Source: Microgenomates group bacterium (GTDB lineage Bacteria; Patescibacteriota; Microgenomatia; UBA10105; UBA927). From it: a stretch of 64,000 nt of DNA. The notes below the pieces were generated by a model that was not told where the DNA came from, searched no databases, and was given only the letters and a program-made list of their open reading frames with translations. Each line of letters opens with the position of its first letter. The first letter of the stretch is position 1. This document shows positions 566-47,882 of the stretch, piece after piece. The translations under genes were made by a program, and so were the position numbers. The stretch is from positions 943,653 to 1,007,652 of the forward strand of contig JBAQFJ010000001.1 in NCBI GenBank assembly GCA_049287205.1, in the 5' to 3' direction.

Positions 566-1957
566 TTACCTGATTCTTGATCCTATTGGAAGATCACTTC
601 CCGAAAGAAACACCGGCTTATTGTCTTTGTCATCGGCAGCCACAATCATCCCCTGTGATTCTTCTCCCATCATTTTGCGTGGGGCAAGATTGACAATAAA
701 GAAAAACTGTTTCCCTATAAAGCTGTCGGCTGTATATCCATATTGCCTGACGCCGGTAAAAATAACTCGTTTACCAAGATTGCCAAAATCTATATGAAGT
801 CGGATAAGTTTTTCACTTTTTTCGACATGTTCAGCTGACTCTACTTTTCCTACCCTTATATCGACAGCGGCAAAGTCATCGATGGTGATTGTTGATTTTT
901 TACCTTTTTGGATAGAATACGCGTTGCTTAACCCAATCGTTTCCCTTACTTCTTTCATTGTGCTTTCAGCAACAGCCATGGCCTTTTCTTTCCCTTTTGA
1001 AAGAATTCCTTTGACTAATTCCGGATTATTTTTCAGTTCTTCATACGAATCCCTCGCATTTTTAAAGTATACAAGCAGGGATTCATATAAATATTGTTTT
1101 ACTGCAACATCCGCTATTTGGCCCTTAGTATAGCTGGTTTTCATTTCGTCTACTTTTGCTTTTTCACCAAAAAAATCAAGGTAAGCAAACACCATGTTTC
1201 CCTCAATGTGACCAACGTCAGTAGCATGTGCACGCGTCGGATCAGTATACGTTCCCATCACCTGTTTTTTGATTGTGTCTTCTGAATCAAAAATGGAAAT
1301 GATGTTTCCCAAGGATTTGCTCATTTTCCGTTTTCCGTCAGTCCCTAAAACAGTTGCAACACTATCCGGAATAAACGCCTCAGGAAGTTTAAAGACCTGT
1401 TTTTTATATATGTGGTTAAACCGCTCTCCAACATCGCGGGCAATCTCTACATGTTGTTTTTGGTCTTTTCCGACAGGAACAAAATCCGGTTTGTAGAGAA
1501 GAATGTCAGATGCCATGAGAATCGGATAACTAAACAGCCCGACATTTATATCGTCTTCCGTGATATCTTTTTGGAGCTTATCTTTGTACGCATGGGCGCG
1601 CTTCAACAGTCCAAGCGGTGTGACATTATTAAGAATTGTCTGCAATTCCGGATGAAATCCTTCAAGATCAGACTGTCTGTAAAAAACAAGTCTGTCGAAT
1701 TCTTCAGGTGTTAAGAATCCTTTAAGGAGTGCCAGTTCATTGAGAATAAGCGATTCCACGTTTTTTTGTAATTGTCCTTTGTTTTGAATCGTGGTGAGGG
1801 CATGAAAATCAGCCACGAAAAGAAAGCACTCGTTTTCACGCGCCATTTCTATCGATTGTTTTACCATCCCTAAATAATTACCAATATGGAGACTTCCATC
1901 CCCGCTTGGTGTAATGCCTGATAATATTCGTTTCATATAGTTTTTCCTTTCTATCAT
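566..1957 (-). CDS. trpS: Tryptophanyl-tRNA synthetase with a C-terminal Myf/EMAP-II-like tRNA-binding OB domain
   Basis: N-terminal SGITPSG...HIGNYLG (TrpRS HIGH-like motif) and a KMSKS motif. The C-terminal ~110 aa (DIRVGKV...GKRVIFTGVRQYG...VNLAPRKMMGEESQGM) resemble the Trbp111/MetRS C-terminal tRNA-binding domain. The true start may be the internal Met at 1936. Confidence 0.8.
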   Translation of the reverse strand: MIERKNYMKRILSGITPSGDGSLHIGNYLGMVKQSIEMARENECFLFVADFHALTTIQNKGQLQKNVESLILNELALLKGFLTPEEFDRLVFYRQSDLEGFHPELQTILNNVTPLGLLKRAHAYKDKLQKDITEDDINVGLFSYPILMASDILLYKPDFVPVGKDQKQHVEIARDVGERFNHIYKKQVFKLPEAFIPDSVATVLGTDGKRKMSKSLGNIISIFDSEDTIKKQVMGTYTDPTRAHATDVGHIEGNMVFAYLDFFGEKAKVDEMKTSYTKGQIADVAVKQYLYESLLVYFKNARDSYEELKNNPELVKGILSKGKEKAMAVAESTMKEVRETIGLSNAYSIQKGKKSTITIDDFAAVDIRVGKVESAEHVEKSEKLIRLHIDFGNLGKRVIFTGVRQYGYTADSFIGKQFFFIVNLAPRKMMGEESQGMIVAADDKDNKPVFLSGSDLPIGSRIR

Positions 1958-2012
1958 TGTATCATTTGTTTTTATACTCGCGGGCGGGAGATAATCCCGC
2001 CCGCGTTGTCTC

Positions 2013-3314
2013 TTACTTCATTTTTCCACTCAAAAATGTTTCATACGCGCCGAGATCTAGAAGCCCGTGTCCTGACAAATTAAACAGAATGGTTTTCTTT
2101 TTCCCTTCTTTTTTTGCCTGTAGCGCTTCCACGATCATGTGTTTAATTGCATGGGCTGATTCCGGCGCAGGGATAATCCCCTCAGTTTCAATAAAAAGCT
2201 GTGCTGCAGCAAACACTTCTTTTTGATCATAGGCAGCCGCCTCAATAAGTTTTTTGTTGTACAAAAAACTCACCAGTGGTGAGACGCCGTGATATCTGAG
2301 CCCTCCCGCATGAATTGGTGAAGGCACATATCCACTGCCGACCGTATACATTTTCATGAGGGGTGTCATCCCTGCGGTATCACCATAGTCATAGCGATAT
2401 TTACCCTTCGTCAGTGACGGACACGCTGTCGGTTCAACAGCAATACAGCGTAACTTTTTTGTGTTACCCATTATCTTGTCTGCCAGAAATGGAAATGCGA
2501 CGCCTGCAAAATTGCTCCCTCCTCCACAGCAACCAATGATGACATCAGGATATTCGCTTACCTGTTCTAGTTGTTTTTTTGCTTCCTGACCAATGATGGT
2601 TTGGTGAAGCATCACATGATTGAGTGCACTTCCCAGAGCATACCGTGTATTTCTACCGGATACTGCAACTTCAATCGCTTCAGATATCGCCATCCCCAAG
2701 CTTCCATTGGTATGTGGATAGTCTTTCAAAAATTGTTTTCCACAAACAGTTTTTGTTGACGGGCTTGCGTGCACCACCCCTCCATAGAGATGTATGATAG
2801 TTTTTCTGTATGGTTTTTGGTCATAGGAACTTTGCACCATAAACACAACGCACTTCATTCCAAATAATTTGGTTGCAAGGGACAGTGCTGACCCCCATTG
2901 TCCAGCACCAGTTTCCGTCGTCAAGGTCGTTATGCCTTCCTTTTTGTTGTAATATGCTTGGGGTAAGGCAGTATTGAATTTATGACTTCCCACAGGCGAC
3001 ACCCCCTCATATTTTGCAAAGATATGCGCAGGTGTTCCCAGTCGTTTTTCAAGACGGCGCAGCCGTAAAAGCGGTGACGGTCTATATGTTTTATAGAGCT
3101 CATACACCTCATCGGGTATCGGCACTGTTTTTTCCAAGGTTGTTTCCTGACGTATAAGTTCGCGCGGAAAAATTGGTGCCAAATCCGCAGCTTGTAATAC
3201 CTGTTTTGTTTTCGGATGCAGATACGGATCCGGCAACCCTACCCCGTACTTTTTTAAGTAATAGGGTAAGTTCAGATATGTTTTTGCTAGTATTTCTTCA
3301 TTTTGTTTTTTCAT
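2013..3314 (-). CDS. trpB: Tryptophan synthase beta chain, long TrpB2-type (PLP-dependent)
   Basis: The PLP lysine motif VGSHKFNTAL and the GAGQWGSALS region are present. A length of 433 aa is typical of TrpB2. Confidence 0.8.
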   Translation of the reverse strand: MKKQNEEILAKTYLNLPYYLKKYGVGLPDPYLHPKTKQVLQAADLAPIFPRELIRQETTLEKTVPIPDEVYELYKTYRPSPLLRLRRLEKRLGTPAHIFAKYEGVSPVGSHKFNTALPQAYYNKKEGITTLTTETGAGQWGSALSLATKLFGMKCVVFMVQSSYDQKPYRKTIIHLYGGVVHASPSTKTVCGKQFLKDYPHTNGSLGMAISEAIEVAVSGRNTRYALGSALNHVMLHQTIIGQEAKKQLEQVSEYPDVIIGCCGGGSNFAGVAFPFLADKIMGNTKKLRCIAVEPTACPSLTKGKYRYDYGDTAGMTPLMKMYTVGSGYVPSPIHAGGLRYHGVSPLVSFLYNKKLIEAAAYDQKEVFAAAQLFIETEGIIPAPESAHAIKHMIVEALQAKKEGKKKTILFNLSGHGLLDLGAYETFLSGKMK

Positions 3315-3460
3315 AGTTTCCTTTTTTTAAATTTTTACACGTAAAAGTTAACGAATGAATCCGCCACGTCAAACGTGGCTTTATGCCACAGTAAGCGTGG
3401 AGATCGCGTTTGACGCGATGCCAGTATGTCCTCCATGGTGTTTGTGTATGGTGATGCATA

Positions 3461-3533
3461 GGCAGGAGCACCAGGATTTGAACCTGAAATAGGGATTTTG
3501 GAGATCCCTGTGATACCGTTTCACTATGCTCCT
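3461..3533 (-). tRNA. tRNA-Trp (anticodon CCA)
   Basis: Reverse complement is AGGAGCAUAGUGAAACGGUAUCACAGGGAUCUCCAAAAUCCCUAUUUCAGGUUCAAAUCCUGGUGCUCCUG(CC). It has a 7-bp acceptor stem, a D-loop with GG, anticodon loop CUCCAAA (anticodon CCA), a T-loop TTCAAAT and discriminator G. Confidence 0.85.
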
Positions 3534-3589
3534 AAAAAACAAATAGGCCCTTGTAAATCACTCAAAGACTTGAGTAACTTACAAGGGCC
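3534..3589 (-). terminator. Intrinsic terminator (minus strand) directly upstream of tRNA-Trp
   Basis: Perfect 11-bp inverted repeat GGCCCTTGTAA...TTACAAGGGCC (3546-3589) with a nested ACTCAA/TTGAGT stem. On the minus strand it is followed by TATTTGTTTTTT. Confidence 0.6.
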
Positions 3590-3630
3590 TACAAAAAAGG
3601 CGGTTCCACCTTGTTTCATCGTCCTGCCAT

Positions 3631-3653
3631 TAAAAAACTCCCTTTCGGGGAGT
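3631..3653 (-). terminator. Intrinsic terminator (minus strand) downstream of the tRNA-like CAT gene
   Basis: Minus strand reads ACTCCCCGAAAGGGAGT followed by TTTTTTA. Confidence 0.55.
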
Positions 3654-3862
3654 CATGATATAAGGCGGGAAAATCTTATTACATGCTCCGCTGAACGCGA
3701 CACATGGTGCTTTATTTTTACAGGTAAGCTTCTGGATGAGACATTCTTTCTTTGGAAAGATAGCCCTCTCAGCCTCGATTTTCATCGATAGGAAGATCCC
3801 AATCAATCTCCCTGTGGCATTTATTCACTTGGCAACTAGTATAACACACCTCGTCAAATTTG

Positions 3863-3932
3863 TTGCGGAGCCAGGAATCGCACCTGGTCTAGAAGATTAT
3901 GAGCCTTCTGTGCAACTTTACACTACCCCGCG
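3863..3932 (-). tRNA. Atypical tRNA-like gene with anticodon CAT (candidate initiator-like tRNA-Met, or a degenerate tRNA)
   Basis: Reverse complement is CGCGGGGUAGUGUAAAGUUGCACAGAAGGCUCAUAAUCUUCUAGACCAGGUGCGAUUCCUGGCUCCGCAA. It has a 7-bp acceptor stem with a C1xA72 mismatch, U8, anticodon loop CUCAUAA, a T-arm CCAGG/CCUGG and discriminator A. The D-loop is short (6 nt) and lacks the GG pair. The gene is flanked by a TATAAT-containing putative promoter and its own terminator. Confidence 0.45.
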
Positions 3933-5095: not shown

Positions 5096-5956
5096 ATGAG
5101 TGTTGATCTTAAGGCTACAAATGAACAGTTTGTTGAATATTTAGCGTCTCGCAAGCGAGCACGTGCTACCATCGTAGCATATAAAAAAGACATTGACCAA
5201 ATGTTGACGTTTTTTCAGACTGCAGAGAAAAAAGCCATTGGGGACATCACAAAAGATGAAATTGACGCTTTTTTGAAGAAATTGACCAGTGACAGCTATA
5301 CCCCAAAATCAGTATCCCGAAAAATTAACTCCATAAAAACCTACTTCCGGTTTCTTAAGATTTCCAATATCATTGCCGCTGATCCAGCGCTTGAGGTAGA
5401 ACATCCAAAATATGATGTAAAACCGCCTCGGATTTTGTCTAAACTTGAATATCGTGCGCTTCGTGATGCATGCAGGGGCGATGTCCGCATGTATGCGATC
5501 GTTGAACTGTTTTTGCAGACAGGTGTCCGCATTGGAGAACTTGCGGCACTTATGGTTGTTGACGTGAAAGCTACGGAACTGCATATTGCCAGTCAAGAAG
5601 GTCATGAAGAGCGAATGGTACCTCTAAATAAGGCAGCGCTCGAGGCCCTCCATAAATACATGGAAATCCGAAACAGTGAGGCAAAAAGCAATGCGCTCTT
5701 TATCACAAAAACAGGTCGCCCACTTTTGATTCGAAATATCAGGACTGCAATTGACCGGTATTTTAGAATTGCTGGCATTGAAGGAGCAAAGGTAAATGAC
5801 CTTCGTCACACCTTTATCGCCCATCATTTGATGGCGGGCACTCCCATTATGACACTGTCAAAACTTGTCGGACACAAACGCCTTTCCACGACAGAAAAAT
5901 ATTTGGAGCTTATTAAGGGACAACAGTCTGAGAATGTGAAGCTTGAAGAGTTATAA
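5096..5956 (+). CDS. Tyrosine site-specific recombinase (XerC/XerD / phage-integrase family)
   Basis: C-terminal catalytic region LRHTFIAHHLMAGTPIMTLSKLVGHKRLSTTEKYLEL carrying the R...HxxR...Y signature. Length 286 aa. Confidence 0.8.
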   Translation: MSVDLKATNEQFVEYLASRKRARATIVAYKKDIDQMLTFFQTAEKKAIGDITKDEIDAFLKKLTSDSYTPKSVSRKINSIKTYFRFLKISNIIAADPALEVEHPKYDVKPPRILSKLEYRALRDACRGDVRMYAIVELFLQTGVRIGELAALMVVDVKATELHIASQEGHEERMVPLNKAALEALHKYMEIRNSEAKSNALFITKTGRPLLIRNIRTAIDRYFRIAGIEGAKVNDLRHTFIAHHLMAGTPIMTLSKLVGHKRLSTTEKYLELIKGQQSENVKLEEL

Positions 5957-5981
5957 CCCCAAGCGCTACAATACGTGAGTA

Positions 5982-8123
5982 ATGGATAAAGCGTACATCC
6001 CAAAATCATTTGAAGAGACGATCTATTCCTCGTGGGAACAGGATGGGTATTTCTCGCCGAAAAAAGAAGCAGGAAAAGATCCATTCTGCGTTATTCTTCC
6101 CCTTCCGAACGCAAACGGTGATCTTCACTTGGGGCATGCCATGTTTACGATTGAGGACATCATGATTCGGTATCACCGGATGAAGGGCGACGTTACGTTA
6201 TGGCAACCAGGATTTGATCACGCGGGTTTTGAGACGCAATATGTGTTTGAAAAATTTTTAGCAAAACAGGGAAAAAGCAGGTTTGACTACTCGCGGGATG
6301 AACTGTACAAAGCGATTTGGGATTTTGCTCAGTCTAATCGTGGCAGCATGGAATCACAACTTCGGCGTATGGGGTTTTCCTTAGATTGGCCGAGACTGAA
6401 ATTTCCACTCGACCCCGCAATCATCGAAATCGTGTATAAAACATTCAAAAAAATGCATGACGATGGACTTGTCTATCGTGGAGAACGGCTGGTAAATTAC
6501 TGTACAAAATGCGGCACAAGTTTTTCGGATCTTGAAGTGAAACATGTGGAACAAATTGATCCCCTGTACTATCTGAAATATGGACCGTTTGTACTTGCAA
6601 CAGTCAGGCCTGAAACAAAATTTGGTGATACTGCAGTGGCAGTTCATCCGACAGACAAACGATATAAAGACTATATCGGAAAAGACATCACATTTGATGG
6701 ACTTATCGGTCAGGTGACGCTCCATGTGGTTGCTGATGAAGCGGTGGATCCTGCGTTTGGCACAGGTGTCGTGAAAGTCACTCCTGCACATGATATGACG
6801 GACTATGAAATCAGCAAACGTCATAATCTCCCACTCGTGCAGGTGATTGGATTTGATGGGAAATTGACTGCCGTTACCGGTCCATATACGGGACTTCGCG
6901 TCAAAGCGGCGCGCGCAAAGGTTGTTGAAGACCTTACGGCAAAGGGACTCATTGATCACATAGATGAAGGATATGTGCATACGGTTGGAACGTGCTATAA
7001 ATGCCAAACAACGTTAGAACCACTTCCTATGTCTCAGTGGTTTGTAAAAATCAAACCGCTTGCAGATCGTGCGATTACTTCTATTACAAAAAAAGAGGTG
7101 TCATTTGTTCCAAAACGATTTGAAAAAACAGCAACCCAGTGGCTCACTGACTTTCATGACTGGAATATCAGCCGTCAAATTGTGTGGGGTATACGAATTC
7201 CTGCATGGCGCTGCGAAAGCTGTGCAAAAACGAATCCTGAGAATGAATGGATTATTACTGAGGGAAGTATTCCTGAAAAATGTCCGCATTGCGGCGGAAC
7301 AACGCTACAACAGGATGAAGACGTATTTGATACCTGGTTTTCCAGTGCACAGTGGCCGTTTGCGACCTTGCAGGCAAACAGTGAAAAATCGGATTTTGAA
7401 ACATTCTATCCGACATCGGTTATGGAAACAGGCTATGATATTTTACCGTGGTGGGTATGTCGTATGCTCATGGTGGGTCTTTATGTGACAGGTAAAGTTC
7501 CATTTAAAAAAGTGTATCTTCATGGGTTAGTTCGAGACAGTAAAGGTCAGAAAATGAGTAAAAGCAAAGGCAATGTAGTTAATCCGATTAAAATGGTGGA
7601 TTTATATGGTGCAGACGCTCTTCGTATGGCACTCGTGTTTGGAGCGGCAGCCGGAAATGATATATCCCTTTCTGAAGATAAGATTCGCGGCATGCGGAAT
7701 TTTGCCAATAAATTATGGAATATTTCCCGTTTGTTTTTGATGAATACCGAAAACAGTAAAGATCTCCTTTTTTATGATAAAACCATGAATAAAGATTTAG
7801 TGAAGAATGATCTAGAAATGCTAAAAAAACTTGAGGCAACTGTAAAAACGACAACAAAATATATGGATACGTACCGATATTCCGATGCGGCGCAAACACT
7901 GTATGATTTTACATGGCATACACTTGCTGATGAATATCTGGAACAGAATAAAGAACGATTTAAACAAGGAGACACACAAGCGCTTGCTGTCTATCGTCAT
8001 GTGCTTCTGGTTGTACTCAAACTTCTCCATCCATTTATGCCGTTTGTCACTGAGAGTATTTGGGGTCAATTACCACGAAAACAAGATACAAAACTGATTA
8101 TTTCTTCGTGGCCAACCGTATAA
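5982..8123 (+). CDS. valS: Valyl-tRNA synthetase (short form lacking the C-terminal coiled-coil)
   Basis: PNANGDLHLGHAMF (HIGH motif), WQPGFDHAGFETQ and KMSKSKGN motifs. Length 713 aa. Confidence 0.8.
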   Translation: MDKAYIPKSFEETIYSSWEQDGYFSPKKEAGKDPFCVILPLPNANGDLHLGHAMFTIEDIMIRYHRMKGDVTLWQPGFDHAGFETQYVFEKFLAKQGKSRFDYSRDELYKAIWDFAQSNRGSMESQLRRMGFSLDWPRLKFPLDPAIIEIVYKTFKKMHDDGLVYRGERLVNYCTKCGTSFSDLEVKHVEQIDPLYYLKYGPFVLATVRPETKFGDTAVAVHPTDKRYKDYIGKDITFDGLIGQVTLHVVADEAVDPAFGTGVVKVTPAHDMTDYEISKRHNLPLVQVIGFDGKLTAVTGPYTGLRVKAARAKVVEDLTAKGLIDHIDEGYVHTVGTCYKCQTTLEPLPMSQWFVKIKPLADRAITSITKKEVSFVPKRFEKTATQWLTDFHDWNISRQIVWGIRIPAWRCESCAKTNPENEWIITEGSIPEKCPHCGGTTLQQDEDVFDTWFSSAQWPFATLQANSEKSDFETFYPTSVMETGYDILPWWVCRMLMVGLYVTGKVPFKKVYLHGLVRDSKGQKMSKSKGNVVNPIKMVDLYGADALRMALVFGAAAGNDISLSEDKIRGMRNFANKLWNISRLFLMNTENSKDLLFYDKTMNKDLVKNDLEMLKKLEATVKTTTKYMDTYRYSDAAQTLYDFTWHTLADEYLEQNKERFKQGDTQALAVYRHVLLVVLKLLHPFMPFVTESIWGQLPRKQDTKLIISSWPTV

Positions 8124-43310: not shown

Positions 43311-43383
43311 GGGCCCGTAGCTTAGCTGGTAGAGCGCATCATTTGCAATGATGAGGTCACCGGTTCGAATCCGGTCGGGTCCA
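43311..43383 (+). tRNA. tRNA-Ala (anticodon UGC)
   Basis: GGGCCCGUAGCUUAGCUGGUAGAGCGCAUCAUUUGCAAUGAUGAGGUCACCGGUUCGAAUCCGGUCGGGUCCA with a G3:U70 pair. Confidence 0.9.
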
Positions 43384-43935
43384 CAATAAAAAGTTCGTTT
43401 CGCGGGATAAGCGATTACTGAGTAATCTTTTATCTCGCGACAAGAGCGCGTCGTCGCGTAAACCGCGACAATAGCACTTTTACAATATCAATAGTATCTT
43501 CCTTTATAAATAGGACAAGGAAGATACATGGTTTTTTTGAATGAAATATGAGTAGTTACATCGTAAGGGATAATCTTAAATGTTGATTACCTGTTACGAT
43601 GACATTTCGTTGGGCGACAATTTTTTTATTAAATGAGTCGAGAAAAATAGAGCAAAGCGCGCTAATTAATTTTAGCTCCTTTGTTCTCTGCAACGCTTTT
43701 AAAGTTGATAATGGATGCCCTGGGTATTCATGCCGAGGAAGGACGTATATGACAGCGATATTCGTCGGGGAGGAGTCATAATCCTGTGATCCGGCGGTTT
43801 CCGAATGGGGAAACCCGTCTAGTGAAGAACTAGTCAATGTACGATGAAGATAACCGAAAGGTTGGGATAGTCGTATGTAGGATACCGGGCGAACTGAAAC
43901 ATCTCAGTAGCCTGAGGAATAGAAATCAAGTACGA

Positions 43936-43967
<32 letters not shown>

Positions 43968-45684
43968 AAGTCTAAACCACAGCGCAAGTTGTGGGGTTGT
44001 AGGGCTTTCGATCTGGAATGCAATTGGTGATAACAGAATACCGTGGAATAGGAAACCAAAGAACGTGAAAGTCGTGTATGTGAAATTACCAATTCTCCTA
44101 GAGAGTTCCTAAGTACCATGGACCACGAAGGGTCTGTGGGAATCTGGGTCAACCACGATCCAAGACTAAATACATGAATGCACCGATAGTGAACAAGTAC
44201 CATGAGGGAAAGGTGAAAAGCACCCCGGAAGGGGAATGAAATAGTACCTGAAATTATCAACTAACAAACAGACGAAGTCCTGCAATCGCAAGATTTGGAT
44301 AACGTCGTGCCTATTGAAGAATGAACCGGCGAGTTGCCCAGTACGGCTTTGCTTAATCAAGTAACCCTTGAGGAGGCGTAGTGAAAGCGAGGTCTAATTG
44401 ACCGATTATGTTGTACTGGACAGACCCGAAACCAGGTGAGCTAACCATGAGCAGGGTGAATGTTGACGAAAGCCAACAAGAGGCCCGAACTCGTCAGAGC
44501 TGCAAATCTGTGAGATGACTTGTGGTTAGGGGTAATATGCCTATCGAACCTGGAGATAGCTGGTTCTCCCCGAAATATATTTAGGTATAGCGGTTACTAA
44601 TTCCCGGAAGGGGTAGAGCACTGAATGATACGTGTTTCGCAAGGAATACGCATCAATCAAACTCCGAATACTTTCCGTGATACCGTAACTAGTCAGACAT
44701 GCACGGCTAAGCGCGTGTGTCAAGAGGGCAACAGCCCGGACTTACATCTAAGGTCTCTAAGTGTGTGCTCAGTGGTTAAGGAAGTTATGAATTTAAGACA
44801 CCCAGGAAGTTGGCTCAGAAGCAGCCACCTTTTAAAGAACGCGTAACAGCGCACTGGATGAAATTCGTAGCGCCGAAAATGAACGAGGCTCAAGCACGCC
44901 ACCGAAGATTAAGATGTGCCGTAAGGCACGTGGTAGGGGAGCGTTCTGTTCTGCGGTGAAGGTTAGGCTGTAAGGCTGACTGGAGCGGACAGAAGTGAGA
45001 ATGCCGGTATGAGTAGCGTTTGGAAGTGAGAATCTTCCATGCCGAATGCGCAAGGTTTCCGAAGCAACGTTCGTCGACTTCGGGTAAGTCGGATCTAAGC
45101 CGAGGCCATTATTTTGATGGCGTAGGTCGATGTATAAACGGTTTATATTCCGTTACTATAGTGTATTGATTAAGACACAAAGGAATGACAATGAGGGATT
45201 TGTTGATGTCTCGCACTCGCGGGATCTAAGCATTAAAGTAGTGAGGACTGGTAAATCCGTTCTCATGTTTAACTAAAGATGTGGGGGAGTTTGAGGAGCA
45301 ATCCGATGACAACATCAATCGTTTCTTATTCGAGAAAAGTTTCGTTGTGAAATACATTGTATCCGTACTAATAACCAACACTGGTGCGCTGGTAGAGTAT
45401 ACCAAGGCAAGCGGGCGACAGCAGTTTAAGGAACTCGGCAACAAAAACTAGGTGTAACTTATTGGAGATACCTTACCTAGAGCAATCTAGGTCACAGTAA
45501 ACGACACTATGCAACTGTTTAACTAAAACACAGGTCTCTGCGAAGCGGAAACGCAACGTATAGGGGCTGACACCTGCCCAGTGCCGGTAAGTTAAAAATG
45601 GTCGGTAAACAAAAACGTAAGTTTTTTTAGCTGGCTTTTTAAGCTCCGGTGAACGGCAGCAGTAACTATAACTGTTCTATGGTA

Positions 45685-46292
45685 AATTTTCGTTGCTATA
45701 GTGAGGTAGACAAACCTCTCTTTTATTCCCCGTGCAAAAGGAAGGCGGGATAAAAGAAAAATTGTGCTAAATGCTGGAAACTCTGAGTATCTTGTGCTAC
45801 TATGTGTTATATGACACATAGTGAAAAAGCATCAAGTGCAGACAATCAGCAGGAAAGATTGGATCCGTGGTGGATTGTAGGATTTGTTGATGGAGAAGGA
45901 TGTTTTTCCGTTAGTACGTTTAAAAATTCAACTTGTTCAAGTGGGTTTCAAACTCTTTATGAGTTTGTGGTCACACAAGGAGAAACGAGTAAACGAGCTA
46001 TGGAAGCAATCAAAACTTATTTTGGTTGCGGAGCGATTTATATAAATCGCAGACATGATAACCATCATCACGATCTTTTACGATATTGTGTACGAAAGCA
46101 GGAAGATTTGAAAACAAAAATCATCCCGTTTTTCAGAAAATATCCATTACAATCTGCAAAACAAGAACAATTTGAGACATTTTGTCAAAAATTGTTTGAT
46201 CCAAAATCCTCAACGACTATACGCACAACTCGGTAAAACGAGAAGATATAGTCTGATCTTCATGGCGACATGAAGTTAACAAATTTTTATGA
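45685..46292 (+). other. Group I intron in 23S domain IV, after GGTA and before GCGAAATTCC (E. coli ~1931 site), carrying a LAGLIDADG ORF
   Basis: The exon sequence is interrupted between ...AACTGTTCTATGGTA and GCGAAATTCCTTGTCGGG. Boundaries are accurate to within 1-2 nt. Confidence 0.7.
45802..46236 (+). CDS. LAGLIDADG homing endonuclease (single-motif, I-CreI-like), intron-encoded
   Basis: VGFVDGEGCF motif. Located inside the 23S intron. Confidence 0.8.
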   Translation: MCYMTHSEKASSADNQQERLDPWWIVGFVDGEGCFSVSTFKNSTCSSGFQTLYEFVVTQGETSKRAMEAIKTYFGCGAIYINRRHDNHHHDLLRYCVRKQEDLKTKIIPFFRKYPLQSAKQEQFETFCQKLFDPKSSTTIRTTR

Positions 46293-46912
46293 GCGAAATT
46301 CCTTGTCGGGCAAGTTCCGACCCGCACGAAAGGTAGAATGACATAGTGACTGTCTTAAACTGTTACCCGGCGAAATTGAAATGGCTGTGAAGATGCGGCC
46401 TACTCACACATGGACAAAAAGACCCCATGAAGCTTTACTGCAATTTGGCACTGAAGAGTTTATTTTAACTGTCGAGTATAGGTGGGAGCCTTCGGGCGAA
46501 CAATGGAATACCACTCTTTAAAATGAATGAATCTTACTTACTCCTACATAAAAATCTAGGAGCAGGACACTGTCTGATGGGCAGTTTAACTGGGGAGGTT
46601 GCCTCCAAAAGTGTAACGGAGGCGTGCAAAGGTTGGCTAATCCTGAATGGAAACCAGGACGTGTCGTGCAAACGCGATAAGCCAGCTTGACTGCGAGACG
46701 TACATGTCGAGCAGATGCGAAAGCAGGCGTTAGTGATCCTCGATACCCTCGTGGGAGGGTTCGGGCTTAACGGATAAAAGCTACTCTGGGGATAACAGGC
46801 TGATCGCTTCCGAGAGTCCATATCGACGAGGCGGTTTGGCACCTCGATGTCGGCTCATCCTATCCTGGGGCTGTAGAAGGTCCCAAGGGTCCGGCTGTTC
46901 GCCGGTTAAAAG

Positions 46913-46948
<36 letters not shown>

Positions 46949-47310
46949 AGACCTTAGTGGAATAGACGCCACTATAACGAGCTGTCCATCCTTTACCGTT
47001 CTAGAATCTTTGTATATCGAGAAATTTTAAAGGATCCCGCAAAACAATACTAATTATATTGAATGCGGGAATAAATCTGACTAATTGCTGGAAACACTCA
47101 GTATCTAATACTACTTTTAAAAAAAGTAACAATGTATTAGTGGAGTCAATCAGCAGGGAAGGCCCCGCCTTGGCGGGGAACCCTCAGAGACTATATGTCA
47201 GATCTGGCTTCGCCAGAAAGATATAGTCCGAACTGTATGGCGACATACAGACTGCAGCAGAAATGCGTGCAGAGTCGTTTTTACATCAAAAAACGATATT
47301 AACATTATTG
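46949..47310 (+). other. ORF-less group I intron in 23S domain V, inserted after GAGACAGT and before TCGGTC (E. coli 2593 / I-CreI-type site)
   Basis: The exon resumes with TCGGTCTCTATCC...CTAGTACGAGAGGACCG. The intron ends in G. It shares an AAGATATAGTC...ATGGCGACAT core-like block with intron 1. Confidence 0.7.
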
Positions 47311-47754
47311 TCGGTCTCTATCCTGTGTGAGCGTTCGATTCTTGAGGGGAGTTCTCTCTAGTACGAGAGGACCGAGAGGAACAGATCCCTGGTTTGCCTG
47401 TTGTCACCCTGAGAGGTGGCACCGCAGGGTAGCTAGATCTGGAAGGGATAAGTGCTGAAAGCATCTCAAGCACCAAGCCCACCCCAAGATGAAGAATCGT
47501 TGAAGATCCGTTGTAGATGACAACGTTGATAGGCGAGAAGTGTACGCACCGTGAGGTGTTCTAGCTTACTCGTACTAATTGATCGAATGTTGTGGAGAAC
47601 AAAGGAAGATTTGTTCTATTCCCAAACGATATGAACATCGCCTCTGGGATCAGCAACAAGATTATCCCTTATGTGTAATTACTCATTCAAAAAGTGTGAA
47701 TATTGATATTAACAATTAAATATTGGTAAAATAGCGAATCGAGAACCGCTCTAG

Positions 47755-47882
47755 AGTTCTCCAGTTTTTTGAGCGACGTGGCACCACCCGATCCCATCCC
47801 GAACTCGGAAGTGAAACGCGTTAGCGCTGACAATACTTGGTCCGCGAGGTCCTGGGAAGATAAGTCAAAGCTGGGGAACTGT
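47755..47882 (+). rRNA. rrf: 5S ribosomal RNA (boundaries approximate)
   Basis: CCCATCCCGAACTCGGAAGTGAAACGCGTTAGCGCTGA core, and a helix I GTTCTCCAG/CTGGGGAAC extended into a long processing stem. Confidence 0.7.

Follow-up and report, generated by a model that had tools for sequence, protein, structure and literature searches.

A putative tryptophan supply-and-charging unit with a T-box-type leader upstream of tRNA-Trp in a Microgenomates genome

The DNA analysed here, called the window, is a stretch of 64 kb from the 1.02-Mb metagenome-assembled genome (MAG) of a Microgenomates bacterium belonging to the Candidate Phyla Radiation (CPR, Patescibacteria); all coordinates are window positions unless another locus is named with them. 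Positions 566-3857, on the minus strand, appear to form a unit for the supply and charging of tryptophan, in which the charging state of tRNA-Trp would be sensed at two levels: by a T-box-type leader RNA preceding the tRNA-Trp gene, and by a short upstream open reading frame (uORF) with Trp codons between the tRNA gene and trpB2. We put the probability of this reading, which is built on sequence comparison, at roughly 0.6. An earlier sequence-only reading had described a co-oriented tRNA-Trp(CCA), TrpB2 and tryptophanyl-tRNA synthetase (TrpRS) separated by short spacers, and this arrangement was borne out by the tRNA searches (ARAGORN and Rfam) and by curated profile models with cut-offs for the protein families. 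It had also let the unit begin at the tRNA gene, which did not hold, as the T-box-type leader and its putative promoter (3534-3857) precede the tRNA.

The tRNA-Trp gene (3461-3533, minus strand; Rfam 59 bits) has the anticodon CCA and the discriminator G73, and CC is encoded without the final A. It is followed after 146 nt by trpB2 (2013-3314, minus strand; 433 amino acids), a stand-alone tryptophan synthase beta gene of the TrpB2 type with the Shine-Dalgarno (SD) sequence AAAGGAAAC at 3316-3324. The trpS gene (566-1936, minus strand; 456 amino acids; SD sequence at 1942-1951) has its start codon 76 nt after the trpB2 stop. The TrpB2 protein scored above the cut-offs of two TrpB2 models (NF009057, 661 bits against 366; TIGR01415, 596 against 519) and far under that of canonical trpB (TIGR00263, 150 against 392). 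The motifs GSHKFN, including the lysine that binds pyridoxal phosphate, ETGAGQWG, GGGSN and SGHG are kept in comparison to the solved TrpB2 6hul_B (E=7e-133). The nearest solved structures are archaeal TrpB2s (6hul, 4qys and 6hte), with about 55% identity to the nearest, and the protein is identical to MFZ2025590.1 from a MAG named 'Microgenomates group bacterium'. Also TrpRS exceeded its family cut-off (TIGR00233, 266 against 177); it includes the class Ib catalytic domain (PF00579, E=4e-54) and an extra C-terminal tRNA-binding domain of the Trbp111/MetRS-C-like type (tRNA_bind, PF01588, residues 367-459).

Other trpB2 loci, given L-numbers here, were used for comparison, those of the close relatives being gathered by eight exact-protein look-ups (TrpB2 identity 63-89% in those with enough flank); a scan of genome contigs yielded at least two CPR loci, and one of metagenomes few close relatives. 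The comparison of gene order with related genomes, which the sequence-only reading had proposed as a check, showed that trpB2 is followed by trpS on the same strand in the window, L001, L081, L082, L087, L092 and L162-L172, that is, in every close relative with enough flank. The outer neighbours of the pair differ among the relatives. As the order recurs while the outer flanks change, the arrangement is not there by chance. The tRNA-Trp(CCA) gene lies directly 5' of the unit in 10 of the 14 non-redundant loci (window included; 63-100% TrpB2 identity), and the remaining four (L001, L083, L170 and L172) have the leader, the uORF and trpB2 without the tRNA. In L170, a 71-amino-acid ORF and trpA sit between trpB2 and trpS. 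Linkage extends beyond this clade: genes for distant bona fide TrpRS proteins (31-37% identical, above the TIGR00233 cut-off) adjoin trpB2 in L090, L094, L096, L098, L138 and L148. In around 16 of 160 TrpB2 loci trpS is found within 2 kb, far above the expectation for two unlinked single-copy genes. These results support tRNA-Trp, trpB2 and trpS as a conserved, functionally linked Trp module; a literature search on TrpB2 together with TrpRS brought up an Actinobacteria paper, in which the linkage is not described.

Three further arrangements were observed. In L143 (2706-2776) a canonical T-box motif lies 187 nt 5' of trpB2, with tRNA-Trp 127 nt 3' of the same gene. L098 (3112-6617) has a T-box motif of the CPR type followed by trpS, trpB2 and a separate tRNA_bind ORF. 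In L096 a gene for an EamA/YddG-like transporter (5667-6629; a weak match to the aromatic amino acid exporter family) is situated between trpB2 and a YbaK-TrpRS fusion, downstream of a Trp leader peptide, and might encode a Trp or indole transporter.

Between the tRNA-Trp gene and the next gene upstream, a tRNA-Met, 328 nt are conserved in 14 loci. They include a leader RNA of about 300 nt (3534-3837, minus strand), homologous in the 14 leaders of alignment A2. A putative promoter at 3838-3857 (minus strand) consists of TTGACG at 3852-3857 and the extended -10 element TGTTATACT at 3838-3846, and each of the 13 homologous leaders reaching that far has an extended -10 of the form TGnTAnAcT in the same position.

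The 3' part of the leader includes two mutually exclusive helices, of the kind by which T-boxes are recognised. The T-box sequence AAACAAGGUGGAACCGCC (3599-3616, minus strand) contains AAGGUGGAACCGCC at 3599-3612, which agrees with the T-box consensus AGGGUGGNACCGCG. The Rfam T-box model (RF00230; gathering score 93 bits, run also at permissive thresholds, E≤10) aligned its antiterminator positions 183-216 at 3583-3616 with 14.6 bits (E=0.37), and this alignment together with the fold places there a UGGA bulge predicted to pair with the tRNA 3' end. When the leader RNA was cut before the 3' arm of the terminator, the minimum free energy structure consisted of helix A1 (ACAAGG:CCUUGU), the 7-nt bulge UGGAACC and helix A2. 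The energy of this antiterminator is -9.5 kcal/mol, compared with -43 kcal/mol for the intrinsic terminator (3534-3591, minus strand), a long hairpin at 3544-3591 with a U-run at 3534-3543. The terminator hairpin has 20 pairs in the consensus and 23 in the fold of the window sequence. Antiterminator and terminator have GGCCCUUGU in common, the 5' arm of the terminator being at the same time the antiterminator 3' strand.

Comparison of the 14 leaders agrees with this pair of structures. Helix A1 is paired in all of them, three of its six pairs showing compensatory changes, and none of 500 shuffles reached the observed score; in shifted registers the pairing drops to 19-54%. The RNAalifold consensus of the whole leader has 30 pairs, 17 of them covarying, and 20 of the 30 belong to the terminator hairpin. 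Where ACAAGG is swapped for GUACGG, CCUUGU becomes CCGUAC and the 3' arm of the terminator changes in parallel; the substitutions thus recur in the T-box flank and in both arms of the terminator, which is as a two-state switch predicts.

Further upstream, a Stem I-like hairpin, AGGGAGAUU-GAUUGG-GAUCUUCCU (3790-3813, minus strand), has a 9-bp stem in which five pairs show compensatory changes among the six type-A leaders. Its loop (3799-3804) is invariant and holds UGG followed by a purine (G or A), which would be suited to act as the Trp specifier and is a candidate for pairing with the tRNA-Trp anticodon. In the type-B leaders the corresponding element is CCGG-AGGGUUGGAA-CCGG, with UUGGAA. 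A hairpin resembling Stem IIA/B, CAG-AAGCUUAC-CUG, is then followed by the F-box-like sequence CCUGUAAAAA (3715-3734, minus strand). The helix covaries between CAG/CUG and CGG/CCG, and the F-box-like sequence of the CCGUAAA type is nearly invariant, being CCGUAAAAA in type-B leaders, beside CGg..cCGUUA in the Rfam T-box consensus. Between these elements and the T-box sequence lies a GC hairpin with U6 (3632-3654, minus strand), terminator-like and conserved with compensatory changes in all leaders; it may be a Stem III-like element, a pause site or a first terminator.

The T-box-type element is always 5' of Trp genes, and a scan of the window for further T-box motifs found only that at 3599-3611 outside the rRNA. 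The relative L171 has a valS leader (817-950, minus strand) that matches the Rfam T-box with 48 bits (E=1.6e-9, under the gathering score); Stem I model positions 22-95 are deleted in it, and its terminal loop reads CCA-GUC-A, a Val codon followed by A. Thus the lineage has T-boxes with an ultrashort Stem I and a specifier in the terminal loop, whose triplet follows the amino acid. The orthologous valS of the window (5982-8123, encoding ValRS) follows an integrase gene after a gap of 25 nt and has no such leader. Canonical T-boxes (96-101 bits, above the gathering score) with the specifier GAA-UGG-A stand directly 5' of trpB2 in L031, L036 and L048, which come from Anaerolineaceae and another bacterium, so that Trp-specific T-box control of TrpB2 recurs across phyla. 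SRP (signal recognition particle) RNA, 6S RNA and RNase P RNA were also considered for the leader and dropped, as they gave no Rfam match and the antiterminator/terminator logic fits a T-box. No report linking T-boxes to CPR or Patescibacteria was found in the literature searched.

The tRNA-Trp gene begins 10 nt after the terminator stem in the window, and the gap is 9-14 nt in all 10 loci with the tRNA, which leaves no room for a tRNA promoter. Neither a consensus scan nor reading of the sequence found a promoter-like motif between terminator and tRNA or in the final 100 nt of the leader. Read literally, this layout would make synthesis of tRNA-Trp depend on passage through a terminator that is relieved by uncharged tRNA-Trp. 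The four relatives with leader, uORF and trpB2 and without the tRNA indicate that the tRNA is not required for the unit.

In the spacer between tRNA and trpB2, the sequence-only reading had noted two small hairpins and no T-box signature. Both statements stand: the hairpins are real but modest (z = -2.1), and Rfam found no T-box and no other known RNA family there at gathering or permissive thresholds. The absence of a T-box is true only for this spacer, since the T-box-type leader lies 5' of the tRNA, and hairpins are not all that the spacer holds. It also contains a conserved uORF of 53 codons (3298-3459, minus strand), MHHHTQTPWRTYWHR...LTWRIHSL..., in which Trp is encoded at 3433-3435, 3421-3423 and 3364-3366. 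The uORF ATG follows 1 nt after tRNA position 76, and an ORF start at that spacing is found without exception in the tRNA loci. Eight loci, one of them the window, have the uORF directly after the tRNA, and in each of these G73-C-C (C-U in L092) is followed by U and then by the ATG. All 14 loci keep the frame open from the ATG to the conserved motif (E/T)-Y-W-R: it has no stop codon, compared with 14 and 7 in the two alternative frames, and the ATG is always in frame, 12-16 codons before the motif. The peptide K-x-K-G-R-E-Y-W-R is preserved by synonymous changes: the Arg codons are AGG, AGA, CGG or CGA, synonymous codons alternate for Gly, Thr, Tyr and Ser as well, and the UGG in their midst is invariant, the Trp being kept in all 14. 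In the window the uORF stops 14 nt inside trpB2. Elsewhere its end either overlaps the trpB2 start or falls 20-40 nt short of it, and in three loci the frame runs on into trpB2, without a stop codon in the part read. An end near or over the trpB2 start is compatible with occlusion of the ribosome-binding site (RBS), and there is no terminator after the uORF.

The window differs from L162 by an in-frame insertion of 57 nt (3367-3423, minus strand), which duplicates the Trp region and is absent from the other loci compared. The insertion brings the hairpins AUCGCGU-CAA-ACGCGAU and GCCACGU-UUG-ACGUGGC, and since their cores CGUCAAACG and CGUUUGACG are mutually complementary, alternative pairings between two Trp codons are possible. 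The UACUGGCGA block was tried as a second T-box-like bulge and rejected, because its UGG is base-paired in L169 and L082 and the frame evidence favours coding.

Distant trpB2 loci of the CPR type have textbook Trp leader peptides, MKNKIFSNNWWIDSLW, MKNKINSNNWWTNNLW and ...NNWWWWNV..., also without an SD sequence. They are situated 100-220 nt 5' of trpB2 (L002 at about 5746-5797; L094, L086, L093, L096, L095, L084, L089 and L005), one of them in a Roizmanbacteria genome. By reading of the sequence, the peptides are succeeded by GC hairpins with U-runs, and the gene before them often has a TrpR/YerC-like C-terminus. Full trpD/C/B1/A operons are headed by some of the trpB2 genes so equipped.

In L081 and L171 the ATG directly after the tRNA is not that of the uORF but of a small serine kinase homolog (mini-SerK, below), again without an SD sequence, and the same gene in the tRNA-less L001 has AAGGAGG. 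This difference prompts the idea, for now only an inference, that 3' processing of the tRNA might create a near-leaderless mRNA.

The sequence-only reading had joined Trp production, charging and the tRNA itself in one transcription unit. The linked, conserved module holds, and the single unit is weakened by the trpB2-trpS junction. A GC-rich hairpin 3' of the trpB2 stop (1980-2004, minus strand) shows compensatory changes in nearly all relatives and may act as a terminator, a processing site or a stabiliser. It is followed by an extended -10-like element, TGATACAAT (1956-1964, minus strand), of the same form as in the leader promoters. TGnTAnAAT lies 12-21 nt 5' of the trpS ORF ATG in most relatives (nine listed; 34 nt in L166), the ATG used for L082 being that of its YbaK-fused ORF. 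The trpS ORF of the window is open from 1957 (566-1957) and the NCBI annotation uses the second ATG, at 1936, which fits the overlap of TGATACAAT with the first in-frame ATG. Given the conserved hairpin and the conserved -10, trpS probably has a separate promoter of its own, which would suit a gene that is essential. Transcripts of the regulated unit may also extend into trpS, and the functional linkage stands.

The tRNA-binding domain (566-901, residues around 345-456) is fused to TrpRS in all of the best 120 homologs listed, and in L170 (9385-9723) and L172 (8461-8796) the tRNA_bind part is a separate ORF just 3' of TrpRS. About a quarter of the best 120 homologs, with around 620 amino acids (including L171 7313-9253, L082, L090 and L096), add an N-terminal tRNA_edit domain of the YbaK type (PF04073).

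The absence of trpA, trpC, trpD and trpE from the window, which the sequence-only reading had reported, was confirmed: tblastn with five E. coli Trp enzymes, TrpA/C/D/E among them (E≤1), found no homolog in the 64 kb apart from TrpB2 itself. Of 12 close relatives, 11 have no trp gene other than trpB2 within the ±6 kb flanks. A search with TrpA gave an indirect hint about the source genome: none of the best 120 matches was on the source contig or on the contigs of the nearest TrpB2s. The CPR proteins among these matches were few and divergent, TrpA being rare in the clade, and trpA and trpB have been reported from 15-18% of the larger Patescibacteria MAGs (PMC8672522). The organism probably is without the rest of the trp pathway. 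The intact motifs, the rarity of TrpA and the predicted control by tRNA-Trp charging together favour TrpB2 as its route to Trp from external indole.

Of the earlier proposal that a stand-alone TrpB2 may salvage indole plus serine, the first part is kept, the gene standing alone in the window as in most of the flanks. As for serine, the co-substrate may instead be O-phosphoserine, as relatives carry a mini serine kinase homolog in the trpB2 unit. A 133-amino-acid ORF of the ParB/Srx fold adjoins trpB2 in seven loci of CPR, other bacterial and, in one case, archaeal origin (L171 5505-5906; L081 about 1780-2163; L001 5462-5860; L087 3540-3935; L138 6326-6718; L154 2510-2845; L020 7371-7595), and in three relatives it is inside the T-box unit. 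It is homologous to the free serine kinase SerK (PDB 5x0b, E=4e-13; residues 16-118 and 204-241) and to the O-phosphoserine synthase SbnI, and may supply O-phosphoserine to TrpB2. No copy of it is present in the window. PMC11917138, citing Hettwer & Sterner 2002 and Busch 2014, attributes to TrpB2 tight binding of indole and the use of O-phospho-L-serine.

In the proposed mechanism, the promoter at about 3838-3857 would drive the T-box-type leader, whose short Stem I loop would offer UGG to the anticodon of tRNA-Trp. At its 3' end the leader would form either the weak antiterminator, with the UGGN bulge held by the 3' end of an uncharged tRNA, or the very stable terminator. As uncharged tRNA-Trp builds up, transcription would read through into the tRNA-Trp gene, the uORF and trpB2. 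Excision of the tRNA would leave an mRNA beginning almost at the uORF AUG. With the uORF ending over or beside the trpB2 RBS, a ribosome stalled at UGG when Trp-tRNA is scarce would leave this site free. TrpB2 would then make tryptophan from scavenged indole and serine or O-phosphoserine, and the essential trpS, after the conserved hairpin, would be expressed constitutively from its own extended -10 promoter, perhaps boosted by read-through.

Several observations count against this mechanism. A full Rfam T-box was not called on any of the Trp leaders, and on those of L169, L162, L164, L170, L172 and L092 there was no T-box match even at E≤10. The variable base of UGGN is A in the window, L162 and L164 and so does not pair with the discriminator; of the other 11 leaders, six have C there and five U, and tRNA-Trp has G73 in all 10 tRNA loci. 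The mid-leader hairpin with U6 and the linker of 20-25 nt before the T-box sequence are non-canonical. These features would suit an upstream element that is no tRNA sensor: an independent small RNA gene with tandem terminators, the mid-leader hairpin ending an RNA of about 190 nt, or an attenuator responding to a protein or another ligand, in either case with convergent likeness to a T-box. We hold this to be very unlikely, since the leaders have the 14-nt consensus, the 7-nt bulge and the two antiterminator helices, with covariation, the F-box-like CCGUAAA comes after a covarying IIA/B-like hairpin, UGG stands in a conserved loop, the sister valS leader combines the same short Stem I with a GUC loop and a T-box match at E=1.6e-9, and the element is invariably upstream of Trp genes. 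It is also conceivable that the leader is of a real T-box type while tRNA-Trp is made mainly from its own unrecognised promoter, which may be hidden inside the terminator, or by constitutive leakage at the terminator, its placement being accidental and without regulatory meaning. The tRNA is dispensable at the site, as the four loci without it demonstrate, and the U-run of the L082 terminator is degenerate; furthermore, a cognate tRNA gene behind the terminator means positive feedback, which is odd and hard to rationalise for a gene that is probably single-copy. Yet in 10 loci, with TrpB2 identities from 63 to 100%, the distance from terminator to tRNA is 9-14 nt, an ORF start is invariably 1 nt beyond position 76 of the tRNA, and the last 100 nt of the leader lack a promoter-like motif, so that we regard an accidental placement as unlikely.

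Also the second level of control has its difficulties. The uORF has no SD sequence, only one of its Trp codons is invariant, the conserved GREYWR motif hints at a function beyond the counting of codons, the L162 uORF forms an in-frame fusion with trpB2, and no structure sequestering the RBS or SD sequence of trpB2 was found consistently across the loci. The uORF might then be untranslated, and the UACUGGCGA block with the hairpin starting in it might act as RNA, for example in processing, in protein binding or as another place where the tRNA 3' end pairs. The invariant UGGC is complementary to GCCA, and most loci have a predicted small hairpin from UGG/GCG, which is maintained where substitutions change the peptide (L169 and L082 in comparison to L162). 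We give this a low probability in view of the open frame in all loci, the synonymous variation at five amino acids, the in-frame ATG 12-16 codons upstream and the window insertion that keeps the frame; the unmistakable tandem-Trp leader peptides at distant CPR trpB2 loci likewise lack an SD sequence. At the junction, the hairpin after trpB2 has no U-run on the minus strand, which also counts against the proposed mechanism. As for the enzyme, TrpB2 might be a second beta subunit beside a full trp pathway elsewhere in the genome, or have a job other than making Trp, and the module would then not serve indole salvage. The window covers 64 kb of 1.02 Mb, L170 has trpA between trpB2 and trpS, the CPR-like contigs L086, L091 and L093 have trpB2 ahead of trpD/C/B1/A, and the reported 15-18% of larger Patescibacteria MAGs with trpA and trpB are relevant here as well. 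Nevertheless such a role appears improbable, because other trp genes are missing from the window and from the flanks of 11 of the 12 close relatives, none of the best 120 TrpA matches was on the source contig or the nearest-TrpB2 contigs, those in CPR being few and distant, and the Trp-specific T-box, the Trp uORF and the linkage to trpS and tRNA-Trp tie TrpB2 to the supply of Trp.

If the two-level reading is carried further, the window would present a T-box of a new build, transcriptional and with a short Stem I, in CPR, gating the gene of its own ligand tRNA-Trp, whose excision would yield a near-leaderless mRNA on which a Trp-sensing peptide controls TrpB2. This would amount to a bacterial 'tRNA punctuation' combined with a two-step charging sensor, with TrpB2 (aided in relatives by the mini serine kinase) as an indole plus O-phosphoserine route to Trp without the pathway. 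We offer this extended version tentatively and would not bet on it at even odds. The devices are each known: the T-box, the Trp leader peptide, TrpB2 and domain fusions of aminoacyl-tRNA synthetases. What appears to be new is their combination, a T-box build with short Stem I and terminator in CPR that Rfam misses, and a controlled transcript that includes the gene of the cognate tRNA together with a uORF abutting it. To our knowledge, no described T-box has its ligand tRNA gene as the first downstream gene, nor has a Trp-codon ORF at a tRNA 3' end been described; a literature search found nothing describing a T-box upstream of a tRNA gene.

The leader would place T-box riboswitches in the CPR in a form missed by the standard Rfam model, and riboswitch censuses of these bacteria may consequently undercount them. 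A T-box with the tRNA first, and an ORF abutting that tRNA, raise questions on feedback and on the translation of processed transcripts. The physiological role of stand-alone TrpB2 has been in question since 2002, and its control by Trp T-boxes or leader peptides in several phyla, together with the linkage to trpS, tRNA-Trp and the serine kinase homolog, is regulon-level evidence for Trp supply, with scavenged indole and O-phosphoserine as the likely source. This points to the indole of neighbours as a nutrient for CPR bacteria that live as symbionts or episymbionts.

Two other features of the region touch on the source organism and the neighbourhood of the leader. A cluster of tRNA-Ala(UGC), 23S and 5S genes at 43311-47876 lacks the 16S gene, which is not in the window; the 23S gene has 3910 nt against a 2925-nt model and a group I intron at 46993-47250, which fits a CPR organism, such introns being typical of CPR rRNA genes. 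The tRNA-Met(CAU) gene directly 5' of the leader (3862-3932, minus strand) has a C1-A72 mismatch, an initiator-like feature, and is intact in the window, and in L164 (5288-5471) and L172 (5334-5535) it is split at the anticodon stem-loop by a group I intron (Rfam 62-63 bits).

Among the closest known systems are the transcriptional class I T-boxes (RF00230; B. subtilis tyrS, glyQS and trpS), with which the leader shares the 14-nt T-box sequence, the 7-nt UGGN bulge, the mutually exclusive terminator, an F-box-like element after a IIA/B-like hairpin, a specifier-like UGG and the association with Trp genes including an aminoacyl-tRNA synthetase locus. It differs from them in having no long Stem I with a distal platform for the tRNA elbow, in its extra hairpins and U6, in not being recognised by Rfam, in its occurrence in Patescibacteria and in having the cognate tRNA as the first downstream gene. 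The class II T-boxes with ultrashort Stem I (Actinobacterial ileS, M. tuberculosis; PMC7778990, PMC11297988) likewise have a short Stem I with the specifier in or near its terminal loop, followed by Stem II and a hairpin of the IIA/B pseudoknot type. They sequester the RBS and act on translation, whereas the window leader, which ends in a long terminator hairpin and U-run, would act on transcription.

A parallel for serial sensing is the anti-TRAP at (rtpA-ycbK) operon of B. subtilis, in which, according to PMC4027176 (its refs 11 and 12), both transcription and translation respond to uncharged tRNA-Trp. The operon and the proposed mechanism share antitermination followed by a Trp-codon ORF like rtpLP that ends at the next RBS. 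The products in the window are TrpB2, the tRNA and perhaps TrpRS, not anti-TRAP, and the uORF is longer than rtpLP, carries the GREYWR motif with one invariant Trp, has no SD sequence and begins right after a tRNA. Short Trp-codon ORFs 5' of Trp genes are shared also with the trp attenuators (E. coli trpL; Corynebacterium and Streptomyces trp and trpS2; PMC1262725). The distant CPR trpB2 loci are textbook cases of these, for example MKNKINSNNWWTNNLW with its terminator, while in the window the uORF runs into the trpB2 start and there is no terminator/antiterminator pair.

The stand-alone TrpB2s of Thermotoga maritima and Sulfolobus solfataricus, and those with solved structures (PDB 6hul, 4qys, 6hte), belong to the same family, the catalytic motifs being intact in the window protein. 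Indole rescue and O-phosphoserine use have been proposed for such enzymes (PMC11917138). In comparison to them, the gene of the window is wired to trpS, tRNA-Trp and a putative tRNA-Trp sensor. Retention of the last step of Trp synthesis has a counterpart in the reduced genomes of Chlamydia, where trpRBA keeps TrpB1 and TrpA, under the TrpR repressor, for the use of indole from neighbours; there the unit has no tRNA, trpS or riboswitch.

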